DNA of 64,000 bases from Phoronis australis (Eukaryota; Animalia; Phoronida), in contig NMRA01000302.1 in NCBI GenBank assembly GCA_002633005.1, positions 336,704-400,703 of the forward strand, in the 5' to 3' direction. Below, piece after piece: positions 11,920-40,901 of this stretch. The notes under the pieces are model-generated. The model was not told the origin of the DNA, did not search any database, and worked only from the letters and a program-made list of their open reading frames with translations. The stretch's first letter is position 1, and each line of letters opens with the position of its first letter. The position numbers and the translations under genes are program-made.

Positions 11920-12083
11920 TTAATGGAAAAATATCGTTGCGGCCAAAGTCAAAGCAAGCATTGCTGGTCTGGTCATCTTTGCCTTGGAGCCTACGTTCTC
12001 TATACTTGCGTCCATTTCTTGGAAGTCGGCGTAGTGTTCCGCTTCCTTTTCCGCGTCTACCACAAACTTTCCTTCGACTTTCT
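11920..12083 (-). CDS. Gene A exon 9: acidic stalk + GPI-anchor signal
   Basis: ttttcag|AG AAA...: [54 protein letters not shown]. Small residues, polar spacer, hydrophobic end, no cytoplasmic tail. Confidence 0.8.
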
Positions 12084-15000
12084 CTGAAAACATTTGAACA
12101 AGACTTGTGTTTCAAAAAATGGTGAAAATGAATGTTGCACTTGTAGATGAGCACTAAATGTCCTTTGTTACGTAATAGTCAAGTTAGTGCGAACCATGTT
12201 TGTGCTAAAAACGCCAGGGGCCCGTTCCAAGAGACTGACTTAAGTTCATTTTTGACTTAAGTCTAAGATTTGGCTCAACTTCCAAACTTTGAAACTTCTC
12301 CACCCACTAAGATAGTCAAAATTAAGAGAAAACTAAAGTTAAAAAATTAAGTCAAACTTATGATCTCTTTCTTGAAACAGATTTGAGATAATTTGAAGTT
12401 TTGTTTTGAAATTGACGGAAATTTAAGATTTGTCTTAGCTAAATCATTTTTCTTGGAACAGGCCCCAGCTCTTGATTTGTACAGCTTCTCGTTGTAAAGG
12501 TAGTCCAAGTCAGGCCGCTAATCATATTGAGTTCTGAGCTCTGTCGGGAAGCAATAACGGTTCCCTTTTTGGTTTTGGCCATTGGTCGACCGTCGACTGC
12601 AGTATTGCCACTACATCAGGAACACGAGGCTATATCCGAAATAATGGCTTTTTCGCGGCCTCTTTTTACCCAAGTGCTTAGCATGTATTATTGGTGCGTC
12701 TGCCTACGTTTCGCATATAAGTCCAGGTGATGTCCCTTCTACAGGTCCATACATTAATTCGCATATAGGCGCAGACGTTTTCTATTTAATAAATTGACTT
12801 GCTTTTCATGAACAACTTTGGCTCATGGACTTATATCCGAAATGATGACCACCTAGTTTTGCCCAAGTAGTTCAGATATTGGCGCGTGCGCCAAAGTTCG
12901 CATATTAGCACAGTTCCGCACAGACCCCCATGGACCTGATGACGCGGCAATACAATAAACCGATTCGCTGAGCCAAGTTGATGTCAATTCAGCTACGTCT
13001 TGAGCTTAGCCCAGGGCGTGATAGCGCGACGAACTCTGATCTGAAAGCTCGTGCGTGCACTACCTGGCAAATGCAGTTGTTCTGTTGAGCAGTACAACTA
13101 ACGTCCATTGCGACAACCCACTCAATTAAATTATGACACATTTGGGTGGTTCAATTTTCAATATGTGAACGTAAGTACATGTAGGACATCCGGCGTCACT
13201 GTTTGATTGAAGTACAACTTGAAATATCCAAAACAAAAACTGAAAACACGATTTTTGTTCAAAATTCCAATGGCAAAATGTAAATTGTACATTGAAAATG
13301 TGTGACTTGCTCAAAATCCCGTTTTGTGGGGATGCACATACAATTACTTAAAGATACGTTTGCCTAAGTTATAGCTGAATAAAATGCGTCAAATCCCGGT
13401 CTTATGTTGCAACAAAACAACTTACCACCGAGCTTGAAATTGTTTGAGGTCACTGTATTCGATACGAATCCCATGGTGTCATCTGGTACCGTCACTTTGC
13501 AACTGTTACAAATGGAAGATAGCTTTAACGACAGTCTATTCTATTGGTATCACAAAGTATGGTACAAAGTTAGTAGGGAACCAGGGGTAGGGAAAGAAAT
13601 ATGTGTTTGAATTGATTCCAAATAATGAGATTTATGGCACTTTGACATAAATTCTATTGTTTGGGAAAATAACATTCTACAGCCGTTCATGCTTCATGTC
13701 CATAATCCTAGTTACATGTAGTTCCTACCAAGTCCGATGGTAACGCTGTGTGTTCTTTCTCTTCAGCTTCCTGTTGGCCCAGCCAAAAGCAACAGTACGT
13801 TCACTTGTAAGTTATCCTAATTTGATACCTAGTAGACTCCTTCCTGTTCGGCGTTAATTGTCCTGGACAAAAGTTACTTCACGCATTTATTACTTTTAGC
13901 CACAGATGGCTTTTCTAACGGCCGATTTCTTTGGATTCTAATGCCCCTCAAACCCAAACCAATCCCCTCAGTCCCCAATAACGCTTCCTCACTTGGCCCT
14001 GGTTCCAAACAACCACTCCCCTGGGTATAAGTGGGATATCATGCGTCTGGTTTTGGAGGAGACCCAGCGGCGAGGTAGAAAGGTTATCAATGGGTCGGAT
14101 AGGCAAGGGACCTGCCATGCTGCCAAGGTTGAGTTTGTCCCACGCCTGTTGGGATGGGTGAGTTGCCGATATCAAATTTCTTGTTGTGGTGTAGCTTTTC
14201 GTGTCCGTGTATTGTAACCTAAAGCTATTTTAAGCCTTAACAAGGAGTGAAGCATAGTTAGGGTCCGGGTACCCATGTAGAATGCGTTAGTGTCAGCGGT
14301 TGACAAGTGTGTGACCCAGGCTCCAGAGGTACTGGTGGCCCGGGTTCGAAACAGGCCTCGGTTTCCCGCCAAAGTGTTATCTCACTAGTGAGATAACTTT
14401 ATGGGTTATTACACACTTGTATCTGCCATTCGAGGCTAATATTGTGGCATAAAATAAAGAAACAATAAAAATATACAAAACAATAAAAACTAACCTGTGA
14501 AATGAAAAAACTGATAATGATAAATCAAAAATTAGCAAAACGTACATTGTATTTAAACGACATTTGACACGATTCGTGGCGATTGGTACCACATGACAGG
14601 ATTGTTCATCCATGAACAGCCCTGCCCACCACGTTCCTTACAATGTCTCTTTTTATCTCTCTGGCTGGTCTGCTCACTCAGCTTGTCCAGAACTTGCTTT
14701 GAAGTTTGTTATAGCCCAGTTGGCTGTTTGGTGTACCCACTTGGTACTTTATATATTTGCACATTTGGCATTTTGTACCCACTTGGTACTTGTTATTGAA
14801 TTTGCCGTTTTGCTCGACCCACTTGGCAGGCAATCGGCCAATACCCATTTTGGATTGTGTACCCATTTGGTACTATGCTAACCTGTGCCACTTAGTATCC
14901 CATACTCAATTACACATTGGGTATCGGAAATGTGTGTGTTATCTCTTGTAATTAAGAAACCCATCTGGTTCCTTCTGTGAAATATTCAATTGTAAAGCTG

Positions 15001-18000
15001 TGACCCTGAAATTCCAAATACAATCTAAAATATATGTTATTCTTGTTGTTTTATTTGTCCCCAATAAAGTACCACTAATGCAGTGCGGCCATATCCAAGA
15101 GCAACTAAATGATTTCACTGGCAGTAAAAGGAACAACATCAGAGGCAGTGAACAACACTTTCAGTGATTTAACACGAGGATCAAACACAAACATTTACAC
15201 CAGAGTCGCGTAATAGTAAAAGTCAGTTAAGGATAACTCTAACCACAAAACATTTTCCGTTTTTACAATATTTTAAATATGTCCAGCAAAATACTTTTTC
15301 ATCTTCATTCTCGGGGAACTTCAAATACGAAATATATACATGTACCTTGTACAGAGAAACAATATTCTGCAGATTTTAAAAAACGCTGTGAGGATTTTCA
15401 ATATGAAGGCCTAGTTTTTGGGTAATGTAACAAAGACGTATACGACTGCTATTTTACAGCAATATCTTACGTTTTGCGAGTTGATTTGTCATAGAAACCA
15501 ATTTAAAAGACCAATCAAGAAACTGGTGAAACTTTTGTTTGAAAGAGATTTCATAAAACTCCACCGACTGGTCATTTTGCTATGAATGTTCCCCACTAAA
15601 AAAGAAATTGTGACTCAAATAAGATGTTGATGTAATAGCAATAAGATTATAAATACTTTGACTAGTTGACGATGCCTGTTATTCTGATGAGCAAGTTAGA
15701 ATGGAGGCCACTAAATAAGGTTTTATATAATCTTACAAAGAAATTTACAAGGTCCCCATCAATCTAAACAACAATATTCTCTAAATTGTTGTTTATATTT
15801 ATTATTATAAATGCCGTATTCTTAACATTAACCGAATTTCCCCTCGCTATGCGCAGTTACTTACATATTTAAGTGCCGCGGTGTTGTAACGCCATGTTGT
15901 AACCGAAAATACAAACACCCCCATTTTTGTTTGTTATACATCTGTGACGTAGTGTAGAAAAAGAATAAATATAGCATCAGATGAGCATAGAAGTATGGAT
16001 GAAGAGTAGTTTGAACGGTACAGGGATGATTAAGCGGACTATTCGTATGATTCCGACCGTTCAAATATCGAGGAGGAGACGAGAGACTCAATAAGAACGA
16101 TTACTGTTCACAGACAGCTGTTCTTCCTCGACCCCCGGCCCTTTCAGCCCCAGCTGGTTTGTCGAGTGGGGCGGACCTACTTAGGCAGAGGGTACGCAAG
16201 AGTTACGACAGGACGTTAGTGACTGATAAGAATATTGTTTAGCAGGTGGAGTAGGTTTAAAAAAATATTTTGGTGTTTAATATATAGGCGGCCCTTCAGT
16301 GACAACACTGCTATTCATAAGGGTTCGCCCGATCGGTATTGTCTGTTTTGATTAGTGGTAAGTGGGTGCCGATAGGGTTCAGGTTGGAAGTACAGGCCTC
16401 ACGACTTGTGACCAAAAAGTCGTAATGTTCTAAAACCACTCGACCCCACACCCAACAATCCCCTGAATCCACGAACCCTTTTACCGGCCCACTACCCCCA
16501 CAACCCCCCTTGACCCACGACCTGCGGCCACTTCCTACACGCAGATCAGCTCTGGCTCTAGTCTGGTGGTTCAAAACAGAGAGTGACGAAAGAGCATGAT
16601 CTGATACAGCGGACTATGAGCGTGCTATCGTTGTCATGGAAATAATCCACGAGCGCCTACAAATGGCTCCGCTCTACTAAATTTAGGGAGAGAGTACATT
16701 ATCCTGAATGCACATATGTTTATATTTCCAGGTGAATTATTTCTAAGTGTCCGACGAAATTTTAATCTTTTGAATGGTTCATTGTTTTACCTTGCATATA
16801 TACTGAATTTTTTATAATTTTAATATGGAATAAAACTTAACTAGTTATTTCACATCACAGATAACCGGCGCGGGTACACTTGGCATATATATAACCTCAT
16901 ATACATATAACAACAATCCAAAGCGCATGGCAACAAGATATGGCCGCGATGCAAATATGGGATAAATAGGTTATCCTACAAACATAGCAATACTGCTGCG
17001 ACATAACAGTATCTCGAACTCATTTCATCTTGTAATGTCCTAACAAGATCGAATATGAAATGAATTTTGGAGTAGTATGTACGTGGAATAAGCTATGCAT
17101 CATGGCGAATGTTCTCGAAGCACAGTTTCCTCAAAGGTACCTTAACTTGTCTTTCGATGTAAACTTGCTCATAACTAATAAATCAGCTTTCCCTGTAATT
17201 CGTCCAGTGCTCGGGTCATAGGATAGCCTCGTTGTTAGCTGAAATTTCCGGGATTGCGTGGGTCCCACTTTAGTGAATGTGATCATGACCATCCGTAAAG
17301 CTGGAAAATATAAGACATTTGTTGGTGCAATACAAATCAGAAGGTTACTTTTTGGTAGCCGCGTTGACATCGGTGAAAGCTTACAAAAGTCTTTTAAGCA
17401 TAAATTACGTATTCCTAAAGCAGTCGTTGTTTGGATACGTTAGAAAGACGACTCATAAGTATTGCCATTTCAACAGTAGTTGGGAGATACGCAGTAGGAA
17501 GACAAAGTTTAAAGTTTGCCATATCGTAAGCTTTTAACTCCATGAAACTGGATATAACAGAAGACAAAGTTCAAGTCATTGTTGCTTGACCTTTCTCATG
17601 ACCAGATTGATCAGTCACTGCTCGGTACTCCGACACATTGCAGTGTTTGTTGAAAAGCAGATTAAACCATCACTTATATTTGGCGTGGACACAGATTTGC
17701 TACTGAGACAAGTACGAGACAAATTACTTTGTTATTTAGATTGTTACGAGTGATGAAGGGTGTTCAGAGAAAATGATATGAGTTAAATTCGTCACGGTTT
17801 TGAAGCACATTGATTGCATTAAATTTATTTATTTTCCACCTGATTTGTGGTTAAAATATTTGTACTCTCTCAACAGGATAGCGTTCAATAACGCTGATAC
17901 CGCACAAAAAAGCAAGTTCTCGCGAGATTCCGCGAGATATTGCCCTGTATTTTAAATGAGACTATTTGTTTTTGTCTAAATTTTTCTCGACGCGAGACAG

Positions 18001-21000
18001 TTATTGAACTCTATCCAAGTCGTGGGAATAAATGGAATACCACAATTCTCTTCCCTGTGATGCGCACGTATATTCGTAAATAGGTCAACAGTATTGTTCA
18101 GTATGGCGGAAAATACCTTCCTCTGTCGAGACAAATCCGATCAGAGCGCTACATGAAATGGGGACCGTCGATCCGTATTCCAATGTTTTGCCGTTGATGC
18201 CGTCGAGTTGCATTCTTTTCGGTGCCACTGCAATGTAACAATATCGTGTTTAGCGATAAGTGTTACAGCCGGAATTGGCTATAGCTAATCTATGGGGATT
18301 AGCTCCCTGAAGCAATGTACATGTAAGCTTAGCATATCCTTGCAACAATATCTTAGACGAACTTGACAAATTATATGAATTTAACTACACAATTTTGAAC
18401 TCATGAGAAACCAACATTTAACCACACGCTCAAACATACGAAAACCAGTTTTCAAAGCTAACAGAGAGCAATGCAAGAATCTGGTGTCTTCATTTCTTAG
18501 CTCTTCCAAACTCTTGATATATAGGACGTACGACTTGGACAATTGCAATTTGCCGATAGTTTTCAATCAATGCAAGATGACTAGATTTGCCCTGACGTTA
18601 TCTAATCGGTTGTGTGATGGTGTGACTTAATTCTGTTGGAAGCGAAAGTCGTCTTTCTTTGATTGCTTATTCAAAATGTGCTCAAGTAAAGTGTCTTTGA
18701 ATTTTTATTATGTTTGCAGCCTAATCTAGGCTCGCACTTGATGGCTCTCAACCTAAATTTACAAATTCAAAATGAAGTCGAAATTTTGAAGTATGACCTT
18801 AACTTTATCAAGTGCAGACTAGTTCTCATGTGTACAGGCCACAACATGCTAATCCAAAGAAAAGACATCGTCAGTTCATGCTAAAGTAAAAAAAATCTGG
18901 AGAGATTCGAGTTCGCCTTCAAGCTTGGAAGTTTTGCAAAAAAGTAGGAATTTTTGAAAAAAACTGCTACACGTGACTTTTCCTGAGTGAGATGGGGCGC
19001 ATCAACTGTTCGATAACGACATTATCAGATTATAGTCTAAAAGCTAGTCCTCGGACTGGAGTTAGAACTAAAAAATTATGATTATAGACCGCCTGGACTT
19101 GTGATACAGTGCATTGAGAGTGACGTACATGTAGATAACTAACCAATCCAGGGTCGTATTTCGCGACTCCAACATCACAGCTACGAATTTCTTTGAACGT
19201 AATTGTCGAGCTTCAAAACAAGCGAGTAAAATTTGACAATAATGCGGAATTTTTGATAACTGACAAATTCTGACGGCAACTGAATTCCAGGGGATCGGGC
19301 AACTTCACCTTAAATGCGCTAAGTTCACCCTTGCGGAAACGATTTTAAGAGGTACAAAACACTAACTACAGAGACATTTAGAAGTTGATGGCAATGGGGG
19401 GAGCAATGCGTGAATTTCGAGACTTTCTTATCTTACAGCTACATGTCAAATAAAATTGAGGTCGATTTTTAATGTCTCAAAAGCTAGTCTCATAGCTTGT
19501 ATCTACTGTGCGCGGGCAGTCAAGCCCTTACTTCACTAATCCGCAACTGCAAAACCATGCTGCACGTCTTCCGTTCATTCGTGAAGCGGATACAAAGCAA
19601 CTTTTGATCAAGACCGCTTACTGTTATGGAATTGGTCTCGGATTGTTTCTTATACAAATTGCAATCAATTTTTGTCCTTCGAAACAACTTCGTTTTTGAT
19701 GCAATTCAGGCCCTACAAGTAGGCCTGTCAACGCTCGTCTCTTTTTTACGCGTCGAGTATCATCGCAAGCGATTCCCTTGCCACCTGGGCAGGATTAAGT
19801 TGAGACCAATGCTATTTCATTGGGTGATCTACAGTAGATCGAACTTCGCCTCTTGCCGGAACTTATCAAATTTTGAATGGTTTTCGCGTTCGATATAAGA
19901 AATTGAATTTAAGGCCCTGGTTGCTTTCTTCAAGAACTCACAAAAACGTCCGTTCTTGCCAACAGGGGGCGGTGGGTTCTTGGTGCGTTCCGGTGGAGAA
20001 TGTGGAGGTTTTGTTGTTTTGAGTGTCTCGATTACACCCTGGCGAACACCACACAAGTTTGAGCGCAATTTGAATCCGTAGCCTCCCTTTAAGTGTTCCT
20101 CGGCTACACATCTAAATGGAAAAATATTTCAATGATGAAAAAGTTGACAAAAAACGACCCTAAAAATTTGATCAGTAAAGAAGAAAAATAGTAAATCTGT
20201 GACAAACAAAATGAAGAGCAAGTTGTTAGTTCCGGGCATTCTTGACAGCGGGGAAGCCGTGGTAAAATATGCAGGAACAGATATTCATTGTATCTGCTCT
20301 CTTGATTAAAACACGACTGCACTCAGATAGCTTCACAACGCTTGTTCGCATTCTTAGAACAGTTTGCAATCATCAGGGTTGGGTTGCATAAAACTTTAAA
20401 ACGATGCGCTGGATAAGTTTGATTGTTGCTATTCGGCGTATAACTTTCATGCAAGTGGGCCCAGGTGTACAGTTACAAAGTAAATAGAGAATCCTACACA
20501 AGTCTTATGTTATGACATGGGCAAAACCTCTTGGAAATCCCGAAGCTTTCCGAGGGACTTTGACGAAATTTCCAACAGATTTTGCCTATGTCATAACCTG
20601 AGACGAGTGTAGGATTTGTTTTCTCACATGAACCGTAAAAACAATATCTTTTGCTGAAAAACTCGACGTGTCTAAAACTTTCAATCACCAACTTTTGTAA
20701 AAACACGCTTACGCAATGTAAAGTGACTCAGTTACTTTTTGTTAATATTTTTAGTTTAAGCTTAACATTTGTAAATTGCATTCAGCTTTAGTAGCAAGTA
20801 TACTAAAGTTAGAATCTAATAAATAATCTTTAAAGTCGTAATATTAAAACTTAAAAGATATTTATAAATAACAATCGGGAAGGCTTGCTCGTGCGTGAAC
20901 ACTGCATTAACCTTAAAACTGCACAGCTACAACCGATTTCATAAGGGTGGTTTTAAAGTTAAACCTGGTTTAAACTGGATAACCCGCACTTCATGAAGGA

Positions 21001-24000: not shown

Positions 24001-27000
24001 GCCAAGACTACCCTTAGGCCTAACTGGTCGCTGGCCACAAACACAAAAAACACGAAAATTGAACAAAGTTTCTTTTTTGTAGCAACGTTTGTCAAAATGT
24101 ATCAACGTTAAATCTTCACAAATTACAAAGTAGCCGATTGAACATGCCTTTCAGTTCAGCAAAAGTCGACATTGTAGGTGCCGCCAGAAATGAGACGAAG
24201 TCCAACGGGAATTGTGAGCACATTTATCACTTAATGAGTAACAACTGCGAGGCTGAAATTTGGTGAACACTGCTAAATCGTGCAGAATAGTAAGTAAAGA
24301 TATGTCTAACTAAATTTCACCGTAATTTGTTGGCGAAAACAATTTACACAAAGTTTTAAACTCGTAACTCATCCCGCTGTCCTCCAATATGGCCGACGCG
24401 ATCCAAACAAAGTGACCCAAATTTCGCCACAAAACTTGCAATAACTTTACAGTGCTTGCCCCGATTTTGATATTTTTTCGATTTTTACTGAGTAGAATGT
24501 ACTACTTTTCCGATGATAGCAAAGTACTTTTTCAAAACGAGGACAAAATAAAGCCGAAAAAAATTGGTTCGACCCATATTGGTTCCTAGGTTCGAACCGC
24601 CTACGTAAGGAACTAACCACCAATGCTATTTTAACATACTAAGTACGCGTAACATTCCAAAAAAAATCAACGACCACTAACTACAAACTATAAATACACT
24701 ACATATGCAAACGAATCACGATATATTACTAATAAAACAAAAAATAATGAAGACTTTTCGAGCAAGCCATAGCACATTCAGTTACAAGGAAAAAATGGCG
24801 GCGTTCAGGACAAGTTCCTGAACTGATGAGCCGGAAATGTGGGTACGGAAATAACCGATGACAACCGGTAATCATACGCTCAGAGAGAAAGGTCAAATAC
24901 TGTTAAAAAATCGCTTTTGGCAAGAAAGGCAAAAAGAATATATAGAAAGGGTGTCGAAAATAAGAATTTATGTAGTAAGTATTTTCGGATACTGGAACCA
25001 CATGGGCAGTTTGCAAGAAGGACTTTAAAAATGGTCTTGAATGAACCCATCCGGCAAATATACGGACAACCTTCGGGAGAGAGAGTATTCCGTGTGTCTA
25101 ACGCTGCTTGCCAACATTGTTGTGAAAAACAACCACAGTCGGGGAACATTACTCTGACAAGAGTTCTTCTGAAAAAAGTGAAATAGGGAACTTTAGTGTT
25201 TTAAATAAGCTTCCCGATAATTTTGCTATGGAGCTTGAGGCACACATAACACATTAAGAACTCTGGTATAGATTGAAAAGTTCGAAAAATGAAAAAGCCG
25301 CTGGTCAGATGGTTTCACAAATGAACTTTTCAAGTTGTTCTGGACAAATTTAGACTATTTTCTTTAAGTCACATAAACGAAAATTATGAAAAATCGGAAT
25401 GTTAAACACGCAAAAAACGGGGGTTATAATTTCAATTCCGAAGTCAGATAAGGCTAAAAATTCATAAAAATTGGAGACCAATAACTTTGCTCAGCAGTGT
25501 TTACAAGTTGGCATCCGGATTTTTGCTACACGTGTGTAATTTCCCCGGATCAGACGGGATTTATAAAAGGAGATGATGGGTGAAAACAGTAGATTTACAA
25601 ATGAAATTATGAATGTAGTGAACAAATGGTATACAGGGGCTGTTATTACAAGTAGATTTTGAAAAAAGCTTTCGATAGCTTCATAAATAACGTTTTGGAT
25701 ATTGTTAATTTTAAAGCCTCAATTAAGCGTAGGATTAAAACTTTTGTCCGGTGTCATACATTGTTCAAAACGGTTTTCTGTCCAGAAGTTTTACTCTGAA
25801 CAGGGGCTGTAGACAAGCTGACTCTCTTTGTCCACGTGTTTTCATCTCGTGTGCTGAAATACATGTATTATGGTGACGAAACAAGGTATGAAAATTAAAG
25901 GCATTCAAATAAGAAATGATGAATGTATACTTACTCAGTATGTTGATGATACAACGTTTTTCTTAGATGGTTCTCGGCGTAGTTTGGAAGCTACTATGGA
26001 AGTCTTGAGTAAATATGCAGAAATTTCTGGTTTGACTCCAAAACAACTATTATTTGAATGGGCAGTAAAAAATCTATAAAGATGTTTTTCACAATGCAAG
26101 GTGGAAGTTAGAATGGAGCATATCACAATTTAAGATACTAGGTATCAATTTCAGTGGTAACCTAAGAAAATGATTGACATCAACTACATTGAGAGGATTG
26201 ATAAATTCAAATGATGGTGGCAAAATTATTCACATAATGACAACACTGCGTACTCCATCAGGAATTATTATGACTGAATTTAAGGCAAAGAATTTAAGTA
26301 TATTTGGAATAACAAAGGTGAGAGAGTGAAGAGAGATGTATTAAATAATTCTGACGATGATGGGTACAGTGAAAATGATGATCATGATTCTTTAACAAGG
26401 CTATAAAAATTCCATGCCTTTGGATAAAAAGACTACTTACCTTTGAATCAAAAATAGGTGAAGTTATTTGAACTTGAAACAGGCATTGCGAAGTCAAATA
26501 TTACAGTTTTGGAAATGATTATATTAAAACTCATACTGAAGTAACCAATCCTTTTAGAACGAAATTCTAAGTAACTGATCTTTTCTCATATATTAAGATC
26601 CCCGTAATGATGCAAACGGTTTACTCTAAACAGGTTTATGGCATATTGATGAAATGCTAATAGACAAAAAATCTATCTACTTTAGTAAGTACGCTAGTGG
26701 TGATGTTCTTTTTATTAATGACCTACTTGATGAAAATAACAGGTTTTACTTATTTATTGAACATAAAAATATCTCAAAAATACCGGCACACTTTTTGGAA
26801 TATTGATCTCTGATCGAGTTTATTATGTCGTTTCTGAAAAGAACACCATTACAAGTGCACTTCATTAAGATATATTGACCAATAATACCTTTTTATATCC
26901 GTGGCTTAAAGTGCACGTCAGTATGTAAAATGATATATGAAATTATTTGCCAATATAAAATTTTGCCTATTGCCCAAAAAAGATATCAAGAGGAAGCTTT

Positions 27001-30000
27001 TAGCTTTGAAAGTGATGACGGGAAAAATAATATTCATTGTCATTTGAAAGTACGATTTCACGTTATGTACACTGCAGTTTAAACTATTACATAGAATTCT
27101 TGTAACCAACTCTTTTCTAAAAAATAACGTGGTGGAATCTGATATATGTATTTTCTGCCAGTCACAAACTGAAACAGTAGATCACATCCTTTTCGAATGC
27201 AATAATATAAAAACATTGATGGAACAATTACGCCGTTGGGTGTTGTCGGTAAAAAGTATCAATTTCATTATTGACAAAAACAATGATTTTCGGCTTGCCC
27301 ATAAGTAACTGAAATAAAGTTTTAAACTGAATTTTTTTGCAAATAAAATATTTATTTACGTATCTATGTGTAAAAATTATCTCAAATTTCCGCCATTTTG
27401 TTAAAATATTAGAAAGATAATTTTATACTTAAGAAGAATTTTTATTATTAAATAATCGTAATTTAGATGAATACCAGGCAACCTGGAGAAACTGGTTAAC
27501 CATATTTTTCCTGACAACATCCTACTAAAAGTGCGTGGGTATGTTGAGGGTGGCGGGTGCATGCGTCCATGTGTGTGTCTTCAAAATGAGAATGGCTTGC
27601 ATTTTTGTCTTAGTATTTATGTTCTTTATACCATTAAAAAAGACAACAAGTGTCATTGCAATGCAAAAGGTGAATTTGGGCGTTTGATTTGAGTGTGACA
27701 CATATGTGCAAACTCATTAAGTACTATTTGAAATTCTTAAACATGAATGACGATAGATTGCCAAGACGATGTTACATAATGCAGCGTGAAAACGATTTGA
27801 AAGGTCAAAAGAACTGGTTTACCTTAGTAAAATTTATCATTCACAACTGGATTTGACTGTGTTTGGTTGCAACAAGGGGCTGGTGATGAAATGATTTTTA
27901 AAATTTTTTAAGTAAAGACATAGGGATATAAATTTTCAATTGTGGTCGTTTTCACTTGCAAATACGGATAAATGAAATTTTCACCGTTCAAATAAATCTG
28001 AATTAACATGCGAAAAGTATTTATGTAGTAGAATGTCATTACATAAAGTATTAGTTATAGCAAATTTGAGGTGTTCGACGCATCATCTTATGACTGAGTT
28101 GAGTAGGGGAAACAATGTACCTTGACCAGAAAGAATTTGTAAAGCTTGTAACACTGATGAAATTGAAACAGATGCACACGTTTTATTTGATTGTCCTATC
28201 CTTGCAGACCTACGGAAATATCTATTGCCACAATGTATTCTTGGAGATAGAAACATTAAAGCACTCTTAGGTTCAGATTCTATTTCGCTTTAAGTAATAC
28301 AACATCCTTCATTCAAGAAGCAATTGTAATTAAGAGCGAATTTTTGAGTATTTGATGAATTGGCGAGATGGTACTTTTTGTTAATAAGTTGAACTGTTTT
28401 GTTGTTGTTGTTGTTGTTTTTTGTTATTGTTATTAATGTTACATGTTAACTCTTTTAAGGTCAGGTGTAGAAAATGTCTACTTATGATAGAACATGTTGA
28501 GTTCAAAATGTAAGTAATTTCTATTTCAACACAGTTTTGACACCGTCTCGTTGGATCAAGGAGTTGGTGGCAAAATATCATTTAACGCACTTTGAAGTCA
28601 TCGATATCATTTACGAAAACTGAATACGTGTTGCCAAGCTATAAAGTCAAATAATTTTTTTCAACAGCTAAGCGCCAGGCATTATTCAGACGTGCAGGAC
28701 ATTTTTACTCATTGTTAATGAAAGACATGTGAGATTACAGTCAGGCAACAGTCCACGTCTTCATAACACAGCATAAAACCGTACCTATAATTATTTCCCT
28801 CTTTGTATGTGGTTTCCTTGGATATGATGTCGGTCCCTTTATAACTGAGTAGCTTCACTTCGTGAATAAGCCTGATGTTTTTAAAATAACCATCTGTTTC
28901 GTACAGACTCACGGATCTTGGTCCTGAAAAGAAACCTTGAGTCACTCGACTTGACTGTCGTTCCGGAACTGCAAAAATTTAGCGAAAGAAGTTAAAGAGA
29001 TCTCGTCATCGTTTATTACAGAGTGGAAATATATCGCAGTTTTATGTGAACTTGCAATTTCAGGAGGCTCAGGTCCTCACGTCTACGGACTAAAGCACGC
29101 CAGGTGTCAATCAAAGTTGCGTCACTGACCAATAGACCAAGATCGTTCTCATGTTGTAAACAAACACCTTCTGATGACATTTTCCTCGGACACTTTTCTG
29201 TATGTTAAGACAAATGCAAGCATCGGTGAATTTGAGACAATAGGGTTAAAAGGTGTCGGAGAACATTCCGTAGATCAGATAGCAGATATCCCGATCGTTT
29301 AACGGGATATAAAACCTAGTTTTCGTCAGTCTACTAAGACTCGTTCTGTCACCTGCTAATTTATCATTTGAGTGAGGCTTAAACCAAAAATGCATACTCC
29401 CCATGCCACAGGTTGGGTATCGGGGTTCTTGGCGGGTAATCAGTGTATCTTGCGTAAAGCTTGGGTCACGCTTGTCCATTTAGCAAACTTTGAAATGAGA
29501 TTTCAAATTTTGCTCCAAACTTTTGAGGGTTGTCGATGGTTACAGAGCAATATTTTTGTTTCAGAGAACTGGCACGGAAGGTCGTTTGGAATATCTGTTG
29601 CTTGGCCAATACTGGACTTGGTTCCCAGTTTATCTGGAAATAACTTTTTCTATTACCAAAAAAAACCCTGACCGGCAAAACTTAAATGAAAGCGCTCCGA
29701 GGAGCAACACTTGGCGAAATTAACAGGAAAGACGACGATAGAGATGATGACAAAGAGGACGACTATGACGACGATGGTGGCGATGATGAACAATTCAAGT
29801 AAGGATAACATTCACAAGACGAACGTAGAGGCCAGACATCATATAGGCTACAGTCTTGAACGACACTTGGCGAAATTAACTGAAAAGACGACTACGGAGA
29901 TGATGACGAAGAAAATGAATATGATGACGATGATGATGATGCTGAACAACATCATAAAATTCATATGAAGCACTTAGATGTCATAAATCAGCAAGAAATA

Positions 30001-32658
30001 GGCTACACTCTTGCCCAATAGAAACTAAACAAACATCAATGCAGCAAGAGCGCTCAACAACGGAGCAGCGCTATCAGGAAATCTCAAATAATTCAAAAAG
30101 TAGACGTCCTAGCGAAAAATGGAAAACATCTTCTGAAAGCCCGTTTAAAACTTTATGTAGACTGATGATATAGCTTAATTCCGTAAATTTTTTGAAAAAT
30201 GAAATTTTGCGTTCTTTTTAAGAATTTCAAAGTCAAATTACTTGAAAAAGGTAAGTTTGAGAAAAAATTGTTCCAGGTCATATGAAAGGCTATACTTTAA
30301 AGAATCCACATGCAAAAATTCACGTCATTCTCTCTTCCCGTTTAAAATGGCACTCCAGTATGACTGAAAATAGATCAACATAAGCCAAATCCGCTATCTT
30401 GGAAGCAATTTCCGGTTTTTTAGATGTAAATAATAGAATGTCACAAGAAACTAACACCTGCAAAAATTTGGAGGAATTGCCCCTATAATGCGCCCTCTAC
30501 AAGAGAAAACGTTTTTGTCCCAAAATCGAGATGCGCATGCGCGATTGCCGATATTTCCGCCATCTTTAACCGGAAGTTAACAATTTCCGCCCTCTTCAGT
30601 AATTGTATCTATTCTCAGTGCCGTACGTACAAAATTATAGCCTCCAGGAGTATTTGAATCTTAAAATGGAAACAAAATGGCTGCCATATTCGTCACCTTG
30701 GATCCGATTATGACGAAAAACAATAGGCTTCCAGGACTTCCGAAACTACGGGTTATGTGTAAATTTCGTGATGATCGGACAAAAATTGCGACCTGTAACG
30801 TGCGAACAGACAAACAAAAAAATGAAAGCGCTCTGAGGAGCGAAACTTGGCGAAATTAACCAAAAAAACACGTTCGAGAGGACGAGAAAAGACGACGACA
30901 GAGATGATGACGAAGATGACAGCTATGACGACGATGGTGGCGATAATGGACAGCACTAGTTATGATATCATTCATATGACGAACGTAGAGGTCAGAAATC
31001 ACTAAGACATAGGCTACAGTCTTGAGCGACACTTGGCGAAATTAACTGAAGAAAAGACGACGTCGGAGATGATGATGAAGATGACGAATATGATGATGGT
31101 GGTGGCCATGATGAAGAACATCGTAACATTCATATGACGAATTTAGATGTCATAAATCATTAAGAAATAGGCTGCAGTCTAGTTCAATAGAAGCTAAACC
31201 AACCTGAATGCAGCAAGAGCGCTCAACAAAGGAGCAGCGTGATCACAAAATCTCAAATAACTCAAAAAGTAGACGTCGTAGAGAAAAATGGAAAGCATCT
31301 TCTGAAAGCCCGTTCAAAGTTCTATCTAAATTGATGGTATCGCTTAATTCCGTAAATTTTTAGAAAAAAATGAAATTTTGCGTTTTTTTTTTAAGAATTT
31401 CAAAGTCAATTAACTCAAAAACGCTAAGTCTGAAAAAAAATTGTTACAAACTATTTGAAAGGTAATACTTTAAAGAATCTACATGCAAAAAATCACGTCT
31501 TTTTCTCTTCCCGTTTAAAATCGCACTCCAGACGACTGAAAATGGGTCAACATGCGCCATATCCGCCATCTTGGAGGAAACTTCCGGTTTTTGGTTTTGT
31601 ATAATAGCATGTTACAAGAAACTAATACCTGTAAAAATTCGAAGGAATTGGTCTGATAATGCGCCCTCTAGAGGAGAAAACGTTTTCAAGCCAAAATCGA
31701 GGTGCGCATGCGCGATCGCCGATATTTCCGTCATCTTTAGCCGGAAGTAAACAATTTCCGGTATACTTGTAGCAAGCTTCCGGTCCATTTACTGTGCCGA
31801 TTCTTAGCCTTTTACGTAAAAAATTGTAGCCTCCAGAAGCATTTGAACCTTTAAATGGAAACAAAATGGCCGCCACAGCCGCCATCTTGGATCCGATTNC
31901 CAGTTGAACCTGACCAATGTCAACCACACACCAATTGGATGTTTGCACACAAGTAAGAGGATCTTTACCGAAGATGTGGTTTCTTTAAAAACCCCATTAA
32001 ACTCTGCATTGTCACCTAAGTTGCGCGCAGACTTAATTGAAAAAATGTACAAAACTTCCCTGCCGCTCACTGGTGGTAATAGTTTACGAGACAGCATACA
32101 TATTTCTCTCATTCCTTATATGGAGTTTGATCTTTTACCTTTCTGTTGAAGCCAACCAAAAAGCTCAAATTCGGCTCAGTTCTAGCGAAATTAAAATACT
32201 TTGATCTACTTAGACTATGTAGCCATTTTGGAATGCCCGATTTTCTTCAAGTGTTTGTGAATCTTCTAATCTTTTCTGCAGACGGAGCTAAAATTTAATT
32301 ACCCAATGTTAAAACAGCCATTCAAAACTGAGATAAAGTGGAGTGAGGCAGTAAGGGAGCGGGAGAGAAGGGAAAAAGCCAGCAGGACGGAGAAAGACAC
32401 AGAGAGAGGAAGGGAGGGGCGGAGAAAGGGAAAGGGAGACAGGCAGCGAAGAAAGAAACGCGATATACATGTATATATGTACATATGCATACACATATAC
32501 ACACGCGCGCGCGCACCCACACACGCGCGCGAAGGAGACAGCCCGTTAACAACAAGTATTGTGCCTTTAACAAGTTTTGCACCATGCAAAACGTGCTGCC
32601 CAAGTACAGCAAGTCAAATATCTGCATATCTGTGTGTGTGTTTATGTGTGTGTGCGTT

Positions 32659-32704
<46 letters not shown>

Positions 32705-35700
32705 AGTGAGAGTGTGTGTGCGCGCAAGTGAGAGTGTGTGTGAGTGTATTTTGAGAGCCTATGACAAGTCTCCATTTTCTTACCTGCACTGAAGTCAGCC
32801 TGGCCTTTCATAAAATGGACTCTACAGACGATCGTCAATTTTTCACCGTTCTTTTTACTGTTCCAGCCACTTGACGATAACTTCGAAATGCGGGGTAACC
32901 CTGAAATAAGTGCTCGTCCCCTGGATCAAATCTCTATAGGCCAACCGAATAGTATGCGTTTGATTAAGCACACCGCAACAAGAATGGTACCATAAACATG
33001 CCGAAGATTCATCAGAGTTTATGACCCATGGGAACCAAAAAAATCACTTTCAAGTTATACATAGCACAAACCAAAGCAAACTTTATTGTTGTTGTTTTTA
33101 TTTTGTATTTGATATATTTTTTTGAAAAACTATTGCTATGTCTACGCTCGAGCTAGGCAAACAGTTATCAAACAAGACGAGTGAATATCAAACAATTATG
33201 CTTTGAATTCAAGGCAAGAAACACAATAGAACCGGTTTCTACATAACTTTTGTGTTATCATGTCCTTGTTGTTTTCTTTCATTAGTAATCTCACAAGTTT
33301 ATAATAAGTAACTTAAAACCTCTAATAAATTACATTTGCTAAGTATTACTAAAAATATGCCACATGAAATGCTGAAAATTATACTGACATAAATCTTCAT
33401 TAAGAAAGCACCACTGGATTTTTGAAGAACAGCACGAGATTGCAGCTATACTGACACCAACAAGGATGTTTTTGAAAACAACATTCCCTTTCATGTTGAG
33501 GTCACGTTTACACTGAACTCAAAAATAATGTGATTTGTGTTTTCCAGCCTCACATACGTATATCTGAGGATGAGGGCATTGTACACAAGTTGATGTGCCC
33601 ATGCTCACTGGGTGATGGTGGGTATAACCAGCGGAGCTGTGATAGTCATGATGCTGTGCCTGTGGCAGATGCTGAGAATAGTCCATTACAGTGAAAAGGG
33701 GCCCGTTCCAAAAACCTAACTTAGCGAAGACAAATCTTAAATCTTAGTAAATTTGAAAATAAAAGTTAAATTTGCGCCAGTTATTAGTTTATTATTGTTG
33801 TGGCATATACATGTACGTTTGTGCGACCCCTGTCGAGTTGTCTACTTCTTCCGCTTTTGTGTCACGAGCTTGCGTTTAAATACAGTTACATATTTGGCTG
33901 CACTTTGGTGTTTGTTTGTCTACTGGCGTTGTCTAAAAACCCTTTCAAGAAACAGATCTTAAGTTTGAGTTAAGTGTTTGACATAAGTTTTCTATTGATT
34001 TTAACTAACTTACTAAACGTGGAAGTTTCAAAGTCTGGAAGTTTTAAGACAAATCTTAAACTTAAGTCAAAAATGAACTTAAGTCAGCGTCTAGGAACAG
34101 GCCACAGGTCTATAAAAAGCGACCTGTCACCTGTATTTTGCTCATGCCTGTGAGTATTTCGTATAAAGACAGTTTTGGAAATTCAGTTAAGCACACTCAC
34201 TATGCATTCATGTGACTCTGTGAAAGAAAACACTGCTGACATGACGTTTGGAATGACCTTTATCATGTTCCTTCCAAAGCCCTGTCTACCCCCCGCAAAA
34301 TCCCAGATCCCCATGTGTGCAGTCTGCGTCAGAACGTTATTTCACTTCGTAATGCTGCTTAGTGTTGTTAATGCGCCCTTGATTTGTAACAGTGAGCATT
34401 CTGTACAAATGTCTAAAACTGAATTGTGACAAACCGAGTCATTTTTCTTGTGTGTCAGTTGAACAGAATTATAAAAAAGCGAATTTGCATGGGCTGAGAG
34501 TGTGCTATTTGGGAATATTGACAGGGCTGTTGATATATTTATTCATGTTTAGCACTGTATGTAGTCCTTATTATCCATTTAGCTAAATAATCAACTGTTT
34601 TGGCCCTGCGCAAAATATGGTCTACATCTTGTCCTCGCGAAGTAATTCAAAAGTTGTTGCAACCAGAGAATCAACTGACCGAAATAAGATACGCTTAGGG
34701 CCTTACACGAAACAGGGTCCGCTTCGTCGCTTTAGGTGCATCTCGAAAGTGGTGGTGACCGCTGAGGGAGAGCGGCAGTACGATAATTGTGACGACGGAA
34801 ATTAAGTGTTGGCGCCACAGGGGTGTCTTTCATGAAAATTGACTTAAGACAGAGATTTGGTCTTGCAATCCACTCACTTTAGAAAATAAATATAAATTAT
34901 CTGAAAATATACTCATAAATCTTTCTTATTGATAAAATTTGTACAAATTATTTCCAGGCTATTGTGTATTGATGGTTACAGGACTAAACCTTGCAACTGT
35001 GAAGTGAAAACATTATTACGGCTTCACTGTATGCCTCTGACATGAATGTTCATTAAAGGCTGTATTATTGGCAGGTTCATAATAAGGTACGGGTTTTGGC
35101 AAACTAAACAAAGCACAATAAAACAAATTCATTATTTGACAGTTTTGTATAATGTTTGTCTGAAAATTAAGTATAAATACTGAAACAGCCATGACAATGT
35201 ATTGCCAACAGCACATTCTATCAAGTCTTCAGCTGTTGAAGTACACTAGGCAATGAAAGGTGTTTTTCTCGTATATATTGCAGTGAAGAAAATTTTATTT
35301 TATTTCATTTTTTTTTTGATTCATCACTTTTGGTTTCTTTATCATAAATGAGGAATTCGCAAGAGTCTACTGTTGTTATATGCTGGCCTTATACAAATAT
35401 ACTGACCACAACAACGGGCGTCTACCCCAACATATTTCCGCAATACAAGGGTTTGGTCACATATTGTGCCGCTTTATCTACTTTGCTTGGAGTCAAGAGT
35501 CAAGCAAATGATATTTTACTCAGACTCAGTACTTAACGTGTCTAATGCATGTATTCGTTTTTCCTGCTACTTAGTACTCGGATAAATGTGATTTCTTTAT
35601 GGTACTAATAAACAGAATTTATGCCCGATATCATTTCCTAGTTTCATAATGAAAATCGTATGAGGACTTAAATGCAATGCAACCGAATTATTAAAGCTGC

Positions 35701-38700: not shown

Positions 38701-40901
38701 TCCCAATTGGGACTCCTCCGACTGAGATCAGTTACCCATTGAATACTCTAAGGGTGTATAGAAGTCACTGAATATTTTAAAAATTGCACACTTACTTGCC
38801 CATCGAAAGCCTTGCAAATCTTCACGAGCTCTAACATACAATCTTGCCCTCATTGTTTCCCACCTCATTACATTCTGTAGTTCAGACGAGAGGGGTGCTG
38901 AACGTGCGATAACATCTGGCTCTTTTGTTAACTGCCCAACTCAGTCTTTTGTTCCGTATGATAAGAAGCAGGCAAATTATCTCCCAGGCTTCAAAGGAAA
39001 CGTATGGTGGTTGCACGCTATTGCCGAACGCGTATTCAGAACACAGTCAAACCAAGTGCGTTGGTAATCCGTTTGGACGGAATAGATTTCTTAAATTCTC
39101 TTGTAGTTGGGCGATTTTGGTGGTTCAAAAACTTAACATGATCAGCATTTGACGAGGAATTCAGAAATGCTATTGGTTTAAGCGCAAATATGTTATAACT
39201 TAACTTTCGTTTTTATCAGCCCAGCCCAGTCAGGCTAGATATGATCTGATTGGGGATTAGAGCAATTATCGAACAAAAGAGCGCAGGCCCTCCAACCATA
39301 AGTGACAGACTGGAGTTAATCAGTCGTGTAAGATATTGGCTAGGGGGGTAAACTTCCCAACTTGTTGGGCTATAGAATCGAACAAGTTGGGAGCAACGGG
39401 ATGTCGACGTCATGTTTCGAACAAGTCGCTTAGGTACACGGTTTGTTGGTAATGCCACTTTTTGTACTGACTAACTCGTCTTTTTTCCGAATCTCGTTGA
39501 GCAGGACGACCGCGTTTCGCCCTCGGCCGTACACTACCAGTCTCCACCATTTGTATTTTTGTTAACTTCTGTGGCTGTGCATCCGTTGTTGTGTACTATC
39601 ATTTTATTTTAATGATTATCCTTTTTATTCCTTGTAAATATCTCATTCGTTCGCAGTATTAAAAGCGATTTCTTCGTTTTTTTGCTCGTGTTCAAAGTTA
39701 ATTCTAACCTTTTGAACTTTAAGTCATACCAAAAAAACGGCTAAAACGGCGTTAAGGGGTATTTTGTCTATAACTCGGACAATAGGCCTTTAAAATCAAG
39801 CAATGTTTGATGAACCCGAAGGACAATCCGGCTTGTCTCTACCCAAAAGGGAACCTCTATTCTGTCTGTAGATAGTCATCCAATGACTTATCAGTGCTGA
39901 GCAAACGAATTAAAGTGAGCAAACCCTTTTCTAGTTGAAAAACATTTAAACTAATTTCCAAAACTACTGCATGGTAATCGAACGACCTGACGTCATCGTA
40001 CATTTGCACTTGTGTTTCTCGTTGTCAAATTTGTCCCACTTGTTGTTGCCCATGCACGTCGCTTCGATGGCATTATCTTTGCTCTCGTCGTCACCGTTGA
40101 ATTTCAGGCCAAATATACAATCGTGCGTGATCTTCACACCCTTCGCGACCTGTCCCGTGCGAGATGGTTTGTAGCCAAAATATTTGTCGATTTGGCACAT
40201 CTCTGCAATCGAATTGCGTTCTAAAAATGACTTAATTCTACTGCCCATAATCGTCTGAGACCCGTTAGGCTACCACGTCACTATTTCAGAGTTATAATAA
40301 AGCCCAATTATTGAAATGTTAAGGTTCACACCAGTGGCGAAAACTCTAGCGTTTTACAGTAAATAGCCAAACAAGATAGTTCTCCGCGGAGGGGTAAGTT
40401 TCGCAAACGGTAAATTTATTTCCATACCACTCGAGTCTCTCTTAAGGCGAAATTTGATGTCAAATTGGTACGTTCGCTCTCTGCCTTCAACTTTGAATGA
40501 CGTGACTATAGAACAAATGCCTCTTACCCCTGCGCAAGTGTGTCCTTTGAAGTAAGCTGTCTGGATGCAACAGCGATGGCGAAAACGCCTGTAGTTTAGG
40601 GGTAACTCAAATCTCCAGCAGAAGCGATTCTTATCATCGTTCACGTTACTGGCGTTTTTATGTTATCTGCAGTACTATGCAAAATTTTTAGCCAGCGTTT
40701 TAGCCAGCATTTGAACCGATTAACAAATAGCTTGCTGAAATGAGATGAATTGTTCAATGCTGCACTTCCTGATAACGATAGCCCTGTGACACACTGTACG
40801 TGACACACTGTATTCTTACCTCCCCTGGCCAGAGAAATGAGGCTGCAGATGGCAATGTGTAACGGAAACACAACTGAAACAAGATGTGAAACAACGTGCA
40901 T
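11920..40901 (-). CDS. Gene A: predicted GPI-anchored protein, signal peptide + Sushi/CCP + 2 Ig-like domains, 421 aa, 9 coding exons
   Basis: Exons 40820-40901, 40002-40202, 32784-32900, 28785-28968, 19942-20111, 18117-18227, 17141-17300, 13426-13502, 11920-12083. All introns GT-AG with matching phases (1,1,1,2,1,1,2,1); total 1266 nt with no internal stop. Confidence 0.8.
12218..12465. mobile_element. Harbinger-type MITE
   Basis: TIR gggcc(c/t)gttccaaga, 3-bp CAG target duplication; related inverted copy at 33698-34104. Confidence 0.75.
13426..13502 (-). CDS. Gene A exon 8 (end of Ig-like domain 2)
   Basis: gtaacag|T TGC...GGT G|gtaagt; (S)[25 protein letters not shown]. Confidence 0.8.
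14280..14455 (+). repeat. 3' end of the palindrome/tRNA-like repeat family
   Basis: gttatctcactagtgagataac palindrome at 14376-14397, preceded by a ggttcga B-box; matches 46500-46637 and 48743-48906. Confidence 0.7.
14565..14940. repeat. Element with internal short tandem units (tgtacccacttgg)
   Basis: Several degenerate copies of acccacttgg/acccatttgg between 14710 and 14900. Confidence 0.5.
17141..17300 (-). CDS. Gene A exon 7 (middle of Ig-like domain 2)
   Basis: tattttccag|CT...TTA AG|gtacct; (A)[52 protein letters not shown]. Confidence 0.75.
18117..18227 (-). CDS. Gene A exon 6 (start of Ig-like domain 2)
   Basis: acattgcag|TG...GAA G|gtattt; (L)[36 protein letters not shown]. Confidence 0.8.
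19942..20111 (-). CDS. Gene A exon 5 (end of Ig-like domain 1 + Pro-rich linker)
   Basis: tttttccatttag|A TGT...TTT T|gtgagt; (R)[56 protein letters not shown]. Confidence 0.8.
20930..22434. mobile_element. PIF/Harbinger DNA transposon derivative with nested small insertions
   Basis: TIR ca(a/g)ccgatttcataa, 3-bp CTA target duplication, subterminal ttaaacctgg repeats, and a decayed Myb-like ORF end (KKNGDGP) on the minus strand near 21930. Confidence 0.7.
22440..22720 (-). mobile_element. Gypsy-like pol C-terminal fragment
   Basis: [12 protein letters not shown]...TPR and YVLPDGK...RIHLR resemble the post-integrase tail. Confidence 0.45.
23841..23991. mobile_element. About 150-bp MITE, copy of 3891-4041
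   Basis: Near-identical sequence with cag flanks. Confidence 0.65.
25230..27510 (+). mobile_element. L1/Tx1 retrotransposon, degenerate RT and 3' region
   Basis: [54 protein letters not shown]...[10 protein letters not shown]; many frameshifts. Confidence 0.88.
27630..28360 (+). mobile_element. Non-LTR retrotransposon 3' end (RTE-X-like)
   Basis: [40 protein letters not shown] zinc-knuckle tail. Confidence 0.7.
28785..28968 (-). CDS. Gene A exon 4 (middle of Ig-like domain 1)
   Basis: atttttgcag|TT...TAT AG|gtacgg; (V)[60 protein letters not shown]. Confidence 0.78.
29686..31898. repeat. Two tandem units of about 1.14 kb (possibly Helentron-associated/DINE-like) with GAY-rich microsatellite
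   Basis: atgaaagcgct...cttggcgaaattaac at about 29686 and 30822; units are colinear throughout; the second ends at the N at 31899. Confidence 0.75.
32340..32750. repeat. GA-rich tract and (GT)n microsatellite
   Basis: Purine-rich run 32340-32460, (GT)n 32630-32745. Confidence 0.9.
32784..32900 (-). CDS. Gene A exon 3 (start of Ig-like domain 1)
   Basis: cttatttcag|GG...GCA G|gtaaga; (W)[38 protein letters not shown]. Confidence 0.8.
33698..34104. mobile_element. Harbinger-type MITE related to 12218-12465, opposite orientation, with extra internal sequence
   Basis: ggggcccgttcc...ggaacaggcc ends; internal cttaagtcaaaaatgaacttaagtcag is the reverse complement of the 12.2-kb copy. Confidence 0.7.
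35020..36931 (-). pseudogene. Three phase-compatible exon-like segments of an unidentified gene inside intron 2 of gene A
   Basis: 36898-36931, 35792-35882 and 35020-35103 splice to [69 protein letters not shown]. Confidence 0.35.
40002..40202 (-). CDS. Gene A exon 2: Sushi/CCP domain
   Basis: gattgcag|AG...AAA T|gtacga, symmetric phase 1-1; pattern C..G..I...C..G.....C.....W........C (4 Cys + Trp). Confidence 0.82.
40820..40901 (-). CDS. Gene A exon 1: signal peptide
   Basis: [27 protein letters not shown]+G|gtaaga; A-x-G cleavage-type motif at the exon end. Confidence 0.82.

Follow-up and report, generated by a model that had tools for sequence, protein, structure and literature searches.

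The question raised by this locus is whether nine short exons, dispersed along the minus strand of the window (the whole 64-kb stretch of DNA that was analysed), belong to a single gene and, if so, what kind of protein it encodes. The gene is real and is spliced across exons 3–9. The best explanation of its product, to which we assign a probability of about one half, is that this nine-exon gene, one of a small family formed by duplication, encodes a protein tethered by GPI at the cell surface that would serve, on a tissue surface, to distinguish self from non-self or to recognize microbes.

The RNA evidence comes from runs X1, X2, and X3, chosen by species label, whose reads were mapped to positions 11400–29100, and from a 2015 contig set of a different study (X4). 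Exon 3 (32784..32900; phase 1-1; this and all other exons on the minus strand) forms the opening third of the first Ig-like module with its putative B-strand Cys120, and the 3′ end of this exon is found in reads. Exon 4 (28785..28923; phase 1-2), also represented in reads, encodes the central part of the same module; exon 5 (19942..20111; phase 2-1), confirmed by joints on both sides, closes it with Cys181 and continues into an odd Cys200 and a Pro-rich hinge. The second Ig-like module is distributed in the same manner over exon 6 (18117..18227; phase 1-1; opening third, Cys262), exon 7 (17141..17300; phase 1-2; central part), and exon 8 (13426..13502; phase 2-1; closing part, Cys328), all three supported by reads. 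Exon 9 (11782..12083), likewise covered by reads, harbors an acidic stalk, the likely GPI signal, the stop codon (11922–11920), and a 3′ UTR with AATAAA at 11796–11791 and a read end at 11782. The exact joints were represented in X1/X2 by 247/220 reads for exons 4–5, 366/270 for exons 5–6, 380/311 for exons 6–7, 326/280 for exons 7–8, and 354/311 for exons 8–9. Nearly all reads spanning them belong to one strand, and two of these five joints are contained in the X4 contigs.

The reads also corrected the model. A total of 322/219 reads (X1/X2) exit exon 4 at 28926, and their loose end matches 32787–32816 exactly; hence, exon 3 is spliced to the acceptor at 28923. The acceptor at 28968 had the better score in a rough scan, yet it was rejected as the main site because the reads use 28923, although it may still serve a minor form outside the best-ranking loose ends that were considered. 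Therefore, the main protein comprises 406 aa instead of 421, 15 residues of exon 4 being lost, and the corrected nine-exon model is translated without a stop. The original 421-aa model is likewise free of stops; its junction phases follow the series 1,1,1,2,1,1,2,1, and GT-AG ends are found throughout. Thus, the original prediction of nine GT-AG exons encoding a stop-free 421-aa protein stood as to the places, ends, and phases of the exons and failed as to the exon 4 acceptor and the protein length. Six of its eight junctions are now supported by spliced reads, one of them at the shifted acceptor.

The remaining two junctions, those of exons 1–2 and 2–3, are predicted from the sequence. Exon 1 (40820..40901; phase 0-1) carries the ATG and a signal peptide predicted by hydropathy at aa 1–27, and exon 2 (40002..40202; phase 1-1) encodes a putative Sushi/CCP-like module at aa 28–94. 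Their inclusion is suggested by the phases, the signal peptide, the Sushi pattern, and the existence of a paralogous exon 1 with the same donor. A rough scan for additional phase 1-1 exons, with an acceptor cut-off that would itself miss three of seven real exons, yielded no candidates in intron 1 and three in intron 2, none of them Sushi- or Ig-like.

Sushi/CCP domains are about 60 aa long and are hallmarked by four Cys, a Trp before the last Cys, and a Gly-aromatic pair after the second Cys. This pattern, expected by the original prediction in a phase 1-1 exon, is present in exon 2 at aa 30–93 (Cys30/56/77/93, Trp83); it appeared in 0 of 100000 shuffles, the pattern having been written once the sequence was seen. 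The ESM feature search of exon 2 returned Sushi with 0.96, and 10 of the 10 best family-bearing matches belonged to one family or clan. At the same time, the comparison of exon 2 with Pfam gave no family, the PF00084 profile being unmatched, and the PDB sequence search gave no match. The single-sequence fold model of this exon (pLDDT 43.6) was of insufficient quality to be compared with known folds. A HMMER search over 1.84 billion representatives produced four matches and no true relative; the four, i.e., two insect peritrophins, a trypanosomatid repeat protein, and a shark GTPase with a repeat, were discarded as summed scores on repeat proteins. A word search of 5.8 billion proteins, confined to longer targets, retained neither of two candidates at E<=1, a weak negative. 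Overall, the ESM result and the Cys/Trp pattern argue for the Sushi module, and the Pfam and PDB sequence searches lend it no support.

In IgSF domains, the B- and F-strand Cys are located 50–80 residues apart and are flanked by characteristic motifs. Two such pairs are found downstream, Cys120–181 and Cys262–328, with spacings of 61 and 66 and a B-strand motif each; two pairs of this kind occurred in 2 of 100000 shuffles, these patterns also having been written after the sequence was seen. The exon phases 1-1, 1-2, and 2-1 recur in both modules. The translation contains no C-strand Trp between the Cys of either pair, and no similarity between the two modules was detectable in the 421-aa model, where 385 of 500 shuffles scored as high. 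In the PDB sequence search, the sole molecule matched by exon 6 was CD276 (E 0.72), aligned on the Cys strand in a segment which we take to be an Ig constant-type strand. Exons 3, 4, 5, and 8, searched singly, had no PDB match; the PDB matches of exon 7 (an acetyltransferase and AIP1) were rejected as unrelated proteins, and its ESM feature search gave no usable match. When the exon 6 region was compared by word search with the 5.8 billion proteins, again confined to longer targets, 0 of 8 candidates remained at E<=10, another weak negative, and no exon matched Pfam or NCBIfam in exon-by-exon comparison. Each Ig-like domain is split over three exons, and the profile and PDB searches used single exons.

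These data bear on the idea that the downstream modules are some other beta-rich two-Cys module and that the architecture is misnamed. It draws on the missing C-strand Trp and on the lack of profile, PDB, or ESM support past E 0.72, but it is quite improbable given that the motif pair and the three-exon phase pattern each occur twice, and that divergent Ig domains of Botryllus were likewise recognised through structure prediction alone (PMC12582321). The two divergent Ig domains of the original prediction are kept in part: the Cys spacing, the motifs, and the single weak CD276 match agree with them, and the absent C-strand Trp does not.

The predicted layout comprises a signal peptide, the Sushi module, Ig-like module 1, the odd Cys with the Pro-rich hinge, Ig-like module 2, the acidic stalk, and the hydrophobic end. 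Cleavage of the signal peptide after residue 27 fits the -3/-1 rule. GPI-anchored proteins usually display, in this order, a stalk, a small-residue omega site, a polar spacer, and a hydrophobic end at the very C-terminus. By inspection, this arrangement is recognizable here, with D377, N382, and S385 as omega candidates under small-residue rules and a rather short hydrophobic run of about 13 aa (aa 393–405; best 19-residue mean 1.17). The hydrophobic C-terminus without a cytoplasmic tail is present as originally described, and GPI anchoring appears plausible in spite of the short run. The protein is basic and Lys-rich (pI 9.17). No N-glycosylation sequon is found in 358 aa, which is also the case for 5% of shuffles; such an absence is unusual in a surface IgSF protein. 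Alternatively, the C-terminal stretch may not be a working GPI signal, and the protein could be secreted into mucus, tube, or cuticle, its basic modules binding polyanions. The shortness of the hydrophobic end, the high abundance, and the basic charge would suit such a matrix protein, which is nevertheless unlikely, since a separate exon encodes the stalk, the omega candidates, the polar spacer, and the terminal hydrophobic run in the succession typical of GPI signals.

A family context, absent from the original prediction, surrounds the gene. A tandem paralog on the minus strand (604..1131) retains exon 1 (1099–1018) and the start of intron 1, the remainder lying past the window edge; its exon 1 is identical to that of the main gene in 71 of 82 nt and 21 of 27 aa and has the same donor. 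Three further minus-strand blocks within 5733..8554 were found by self-blastn to be homologous to the upstream region of the gene (40994–43358); they are about 4.6 kb away from the ATG region of the paralog, the equivalent distance in the main gene being about 60 nt. A decayed partial copy (48918..50247, minus strand; 72% identity) consists of a piece of intron 5, the final 8 nt of exon 6, intron 6, an indel-bearing exon 7, and the start of intron 7. The reads contain, in addition, a second, diverged transcript of similar abundance, whose reads are also recruited by exon 6 and which may represent a paralog or an allele, in the latter case one diverged by over 10%. With the tandem paralog, the decayed copy, and the second transcript, the gene belongs to a small duplicated family. 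The locus is neighbored by a GAK gene, and the GAK tree places the host among lophotrochozoans, with an annelid as the probable source.

Expression is high in two of the three raw-read runs and absent from the third, X3, which was gauged by this gene alone. Each joint of exons 4–9 is represented by 220–380 reads in X1 and X2 and by none, at all five, in X3; after background subtraction, near-identical reads amount to roughly 240–260 per million per kb in X1/X2 vs. about 0 in X3. Spawning invertebrates are well known to possess gamete proteins that are abundant, basic, and fast-evolving. There is some chance, if a rather low one, that the gene encodes a fast-evolving, GPI-anchored protein of the gamete surface binding the other gamete, its on/off pattern reflecting gonad or sex. 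The high-level on/off expression, the basic, Lys-rich, sequon-free protein, and the failure of the searches run to find relatives are all in line with this possibility; however, several diverged co-expressed copies suit a recognition repertoire at least equally, and known gamete families were unmatched in any search run.

The claim that the protein is lineage-specific and belongs to no named family holds within the protein searches run, as no true relative was matched. Nor was a Sushi–Ig–Ig–GPI family in annelids described in the literature searched, most subscription papers lying outside its scope. The nearest published architecture found is that of Botryllus FcoR, in which a Sushi domain precedes two divergent Ig-like domains and Ig domains can span three exons; Fester/FcoR genes form multi-copy birth-and-death clusters with about 32% mean identity among members (PMC12582321). 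The predicted Sushi and Ig-like modules, the three-exon Ig organization, and the multiple copies are shared with the present gene. In contrast, FcoR has an additional N-terminal Ig, missing here (with the exon 1–2 joint predicted, as stated above), as well as a transmembrane helix and ITIM/hemITAM-type tails. The present protein has neither: reads connect exon 8 with the terminal exon 9, which contains the stop, leaving no tyrosine-motif tail. Moreover, the host of FcoR is a tunicate, the present one a lophotrochozoan by the GAK tree, and no motifs common to the FcoR sequences (PMC12582321, supplement part 3) and this protein were seen by eye. It is conceivable, though improbable, that an FcoR-like Sushi–Ig–Ig ectodomain was reached independently in a GPI form. 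The gene would then be the first-seen member of an annelid self/non-self family. The second transcript would be a highly diverged allele or would stem from a variable cluster as a partner expressed alongside, and cell type or haplotype would account for the silent run.

Another comparison is offered by Dpr proteins, which combine two Ig domains with a hydrophobic C-terminus, lack an intracellular domain, and bind through the N-terminal Ig (PMC6525511). Provided that the Ig assignment is right, the signal peptide, the two Ig domains, the hydrophobic C-terminus, and the missing intracellular part would be shared with the Dpr/ZIG-8 (Wirin) proteins; the N-terminal Sushi, the Pro-rich hinge between the Ig modules, and the lack of a C-strand Trp set the present protein apart. 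In both worms and flies, synapses are organised by CCP modules, and CCP and CCP+Ig proteins function there, e.g., Hikaru genki of Drosophila, a synaptic matrix protein combining CCP with Ig as here but with five CCP and one Ig (PMC9083331). Still, a Dpr/ZIG-8-like wiring or synaptic protein with an added CCP has a small likelihood: the N-terminal position, used by Dprs for binding, is occupied here by the Sushi-like module, solved Wirins had no match in the (insensitive) per-exon searches, and an abundance of about 250 reads per million per kb would seem high for a wiring receptor measured in bulk RNA. Hydractinia Alr1/Alr2 resemble the present gene in their divergent Ig-like ectodomains and duplicated clusters with pseudogenes and differ in that each Ig domain is encoded by a single exon and that the proteins possess a transmembrane helix and ITAM/ITIM-like tails, none of which is found here (10.1101/2022.03.25.485889). 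Allorecognition loci of the Alr and fuhc type are distinguished by extreme allelic polymorphism from which fusion or rejection can be predicted; the second diverged transcript, allele or paralog, is what was observed here in this respect. As to complement regulators, the present protein shares with the CD55/DAF type a predicted CCP, a stalk, and the likely GPI anchor. CD55/DAF-type regulators contain multiple CCPs in tandem and lack Ig domains, whereas a single CCP is predicted here.

Under the preferred reading of a fast-evolving, GPI-tethered recognition protein, the signal peptide would be removed near residue 27, and a GPI anchor would replace the hydrophobic stretch at the C-terminus. The predicted Sushi module would be projected outward on the two predicted Ig-like modules, so that the Sushi tip and Ig-like module 1 could engage a partner located on a different cell or surface. 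Since a cytoplasmic tail is absent, autonomous signaling is not expected; the protein might serve as a tag for adhesion or identity, or it might depend on a separate co-receptor to pass on a signal. Dimerization may be mediated by the odd Cys200, with which the Pro-rich hinge begins, and as copies duplicate and decay, the specificity of the protein would become more diverse.

Invertebrates commonly possess orphan IgSF/CCP surface genes, and if the present gene is an ordinary one of this kind, not much is gained beyond a correct gene model. Even so, such genes slip past profile annotation: all exons are silent in Pfam in spite of an abundant, sample-restricted transcript. If the recognition family is true, a second birth-and-death cluster combining Sushi with three-exon Ig modules would be on record, and annelids would gain a tangible candidate gene for gamete or self/non-self recognition.

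All nine segments of the predicted gene were recovered on the minus strand at the expected positions: exons 1–9, numbered from the 5′ end of the gene, occupy 40901–40820, 40202–40002, 32900–32784, 28968–28785, 20111–19942, 18227–18117, 17300–17141, 13502–13426 and 12083–11920, with GT–AG borders at 8/8 introns of this model and an exon G+C content of 40–51% vs. 39% in the window. RNA evidence came from three raw-read runs (X1–X3) and one 2015 contig set (X4), all bearing the same species label; reads were compared with 11400–29100, a stretch containing exons 4–9, and about 18–19% of each raw run was read. The five junctions between these exons are exact in X1/X2, being spanned by 247/220 (exons 4–5), 366/270 (5–6), 380/311 (6–7), 326/280 (7–8) and 354/311 reads (8–9), and first mates of the junction reads, except two, lie on the plus strand, which fits minus-strand RNA in a stranded library. 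The molecules read accumulate at 11782, immediately beyond AATAAA at 11796–11791. In X4, coming from a separate study, two of the five joints are present; in X3, a comparison lacking a control gene, repeat-derived reads are present there and all five junctions have 0 reads. After background removal, near-identical reads amount to roughly 260 (X1), 242 (X2) and 0 (X3) per million per kb.

A loose read end at 28926 (322/219 reads in X1/X2) matches 32787–32816 with zero mismatches; hence, exon 3 is spliced to 28923. The acceptor at 28968 was accordingly rejected as the main form, the reads using a site 45 nt inside the predicted exon 4, and the main protein therefore has 406 aa: the originally predicted 421-aa frame does translate without stops but is not the main product. 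Overall, six of the eight junctions are supported by spliced reads, but junctions 1–2 and 2–3 lack such support. The gene is almost certainly real, and its transcript is abundant, spliced, sample-restricted and derived from a duplicating locus.

Residues 1–27 are hydrophobic and satisfy the −3/−1 cleavage rule; the protein would be secreted. Within residues 28–94, encoded by one exon of phase 1-1, four Cys and a Trp stand in Sushi order, and an ESM feature search ranked Sushi-bearing clusters at the top (0.96, recognition 2449), but Pfam and PDB sequence searches gave no match for this predicted Sushi module and its single-sequence fold was unusable. The two modules that follow comprise three exons each, with phases 1-1, 1-2 and 2-1 in both, and in each a B-strand-like Cys motif is paired with a later Cys at a distance of 61 or 66 residues. 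Two such pairs, defined by textbook motifs, arose in 2 of 100,000 shuffles, an optimistic figure because the patterns were written after the sequence had been seen. Exon 6 alone, compared with the PDB, matched CD276 only, on the Cys strand (E 0.72); the remaining exons, searched singly rather than as whole domains, gave no relevant match. The Cys pairs, the repeated phases and the weak CD276 match speak for the two divergent Ig modules originally proposed, but the C-strand Trp is absent from both, and the modules show no similarity to each other; non-Ig folds of these modules, compatible with the other readings, are improbable.

Between the Ig-like modules lie an odd Cys200, through which the protein could perhaps dimerize, and a 36-aa hinge with eight Pro. 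Module 2 is followed by an acidic stalk with candidate omega sites D377, N382 and S385, and the protein closes, as predicted, on about 13 hydrophobic residues without a cytoplasmic tail. This stretch (best 19-residue mean hydropathy 1.17) is too short for a membrane anchor; GPI attachment at the C-terminus is likely. With a pI of 9.17 the ectodomain is basic, and it lacks an N-glycosylation sequon, as do 5% of shuffles. Taken together, a Sushi-Ig-Ig-GPI layout is probable.

Exon 2, searched against 1.84 billion representatives, gave four matches, all rejected as repeat artefacts, and no true relative; in word searches of large protein collections, neither exon 2 nor the exon 6 region brought up a match. 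Since exons 3, 4, 5, 7, 8 and 9 were left out of these queries, the absence of relatives, and with it the presumed lineage specificity, holds for part of the protein only. The literature searches brought up no annelid Sushi-Ig-Ig-GPI family. Within these searches, the domain order is new, and the modules themselves are known.

Botryllus FcoR proteins are signal-Ig-Sushi-Ig-Ig-TM molecules with tyrosine motifs and a mean identity of about 32%; their clusters undergo birth and death, and either one or three exons encode the first Ig (PMC12582321). The present product would at most work like a tail-less version of the FcoR ectodomain, and membership was rejected, the N-terminal Ig and the tail both being absent. 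In Hydractinia, each Ig of an Alr gene occupies one exon, and the product has a membrane-spanning tail (10.1101/2022.03.25.485889); Hikaru genki combines five CCP with one Ig (PMC9083331). Dprs likewise have two Ig domains and end in a hydrophobic stretch, but their binding is through an N-terminal Ig (PMC6525511, PMC10084454).

The two Ig-like modules and their flexible hinge would hold up the Sushi tip for display. Lacking a cytoplasmic tail, the protein would have to serve as a tag for adhesion or identity, as a decoy, or as the half of a receptor pair that binds the ligand. Among invertebrates, orphan surface genes of the IgSF/CCP kind are frequent. Recognition of self/non-self or microbes at the tissue surface, taken as a whole, ranks first, with a probability of about one half. 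Gamete recognition comes second and is rather unlikely; a role in neural wiring, ranked after it, is less likely still, and so is a secreted matrix protein. Equally doubtful is the narrower view of a self/non-self family that reached a GPI-anchored, FcoR-like Sushi-Ig-Ig ectodomain independently.

The next gene, on the plus strand from about 51680, encodes cyclin G-associated kinase (GAK/auxilin), with at least 15 exon cores at 51682–63662, and continues past the window end. By identity, the best match to its kinase exon is from Owenia fusiformis (87%), while by E-value a nematode protein comes first, at 67%; scores summed over all exons did not single out Owenia. In a quick 50-row tree it fell within a lophotrochozoan clade (SH-aLRT 99) and next to Owenia with weak support (84). 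Used to place the host, this gene points to a probable annelid. Elsewhere, two overlapping plus-strand frames at 9924–10717, with a weak double-jelly-roll Pfam match (E 0.038), are likely a decayed Polinton-like capsid gene, and a 353-aa Penelope-like frame (41826–42887, minus strand; GIY-YIG match, E 5.8e-05) lies about 0.9 kb upstream of the nine-exon gene. The intron 7 repeat at 13621–15062 has heavy opposite-strand read cover at 90–95% identity and a joint reaching back 1442 nt (68/55 reads in X1/X2); it is a tandem or terminal-repeat element whose expression comes from other copies. Intron 3 holds a tandem duplication of about 1.17 kb (29684–31898; 80% identity, internal 160-nt subrepeats), followed by the sole N of the window at 31899.

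A same-strand paralog has an exon 1 that begins at 1099, is identical to that of the main gene at 71/82 nt and 21/27 aa and uses the same donor; its intron 1 is about 70% alike, and this intron homology ends at a short MITE-like inverted-repeat element (7–598) in the paralog intron. Just upstream of the paralog ATG, at 1384–3140, long inverted-repeat arms (91–96% complementary) overlap a Penelope-like RT/GIY-YIG frame (1706–2602, minus strand). This inverted-repeat, GIY-YIG-bearing element sits between the paralog and its upstream homology blocks, which are 4.6 kb farther away than in the main gene, so the paralog may or may not be active. In a decayed relic at 48918–50247, exon 6 survives as its final 8 nt, alongside intron 6 and an exon 7 with indels.

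A second transcript is represented by 402/311 reads (X1/X2) that agree with exon 6 as far as 18131 and differ from there on; their 30 loose bases match nothing within the window and differ at 10 positions from the spliced exon 6–7 junction, keeping the frame. Depth in X1 is about 790 on exon 6 vs. 420–520 on the other four internal exons; thus, the second transcript would be similar in abundance and mostly below 90% alike elsewhere. A paralog such as the copy at 1099 is its simpler source, a very diverged allele being a possible one. The original prediction had treated the locus as a single gene; with the paralog, the relic and the second transcript, it is a small, fast-changing family.
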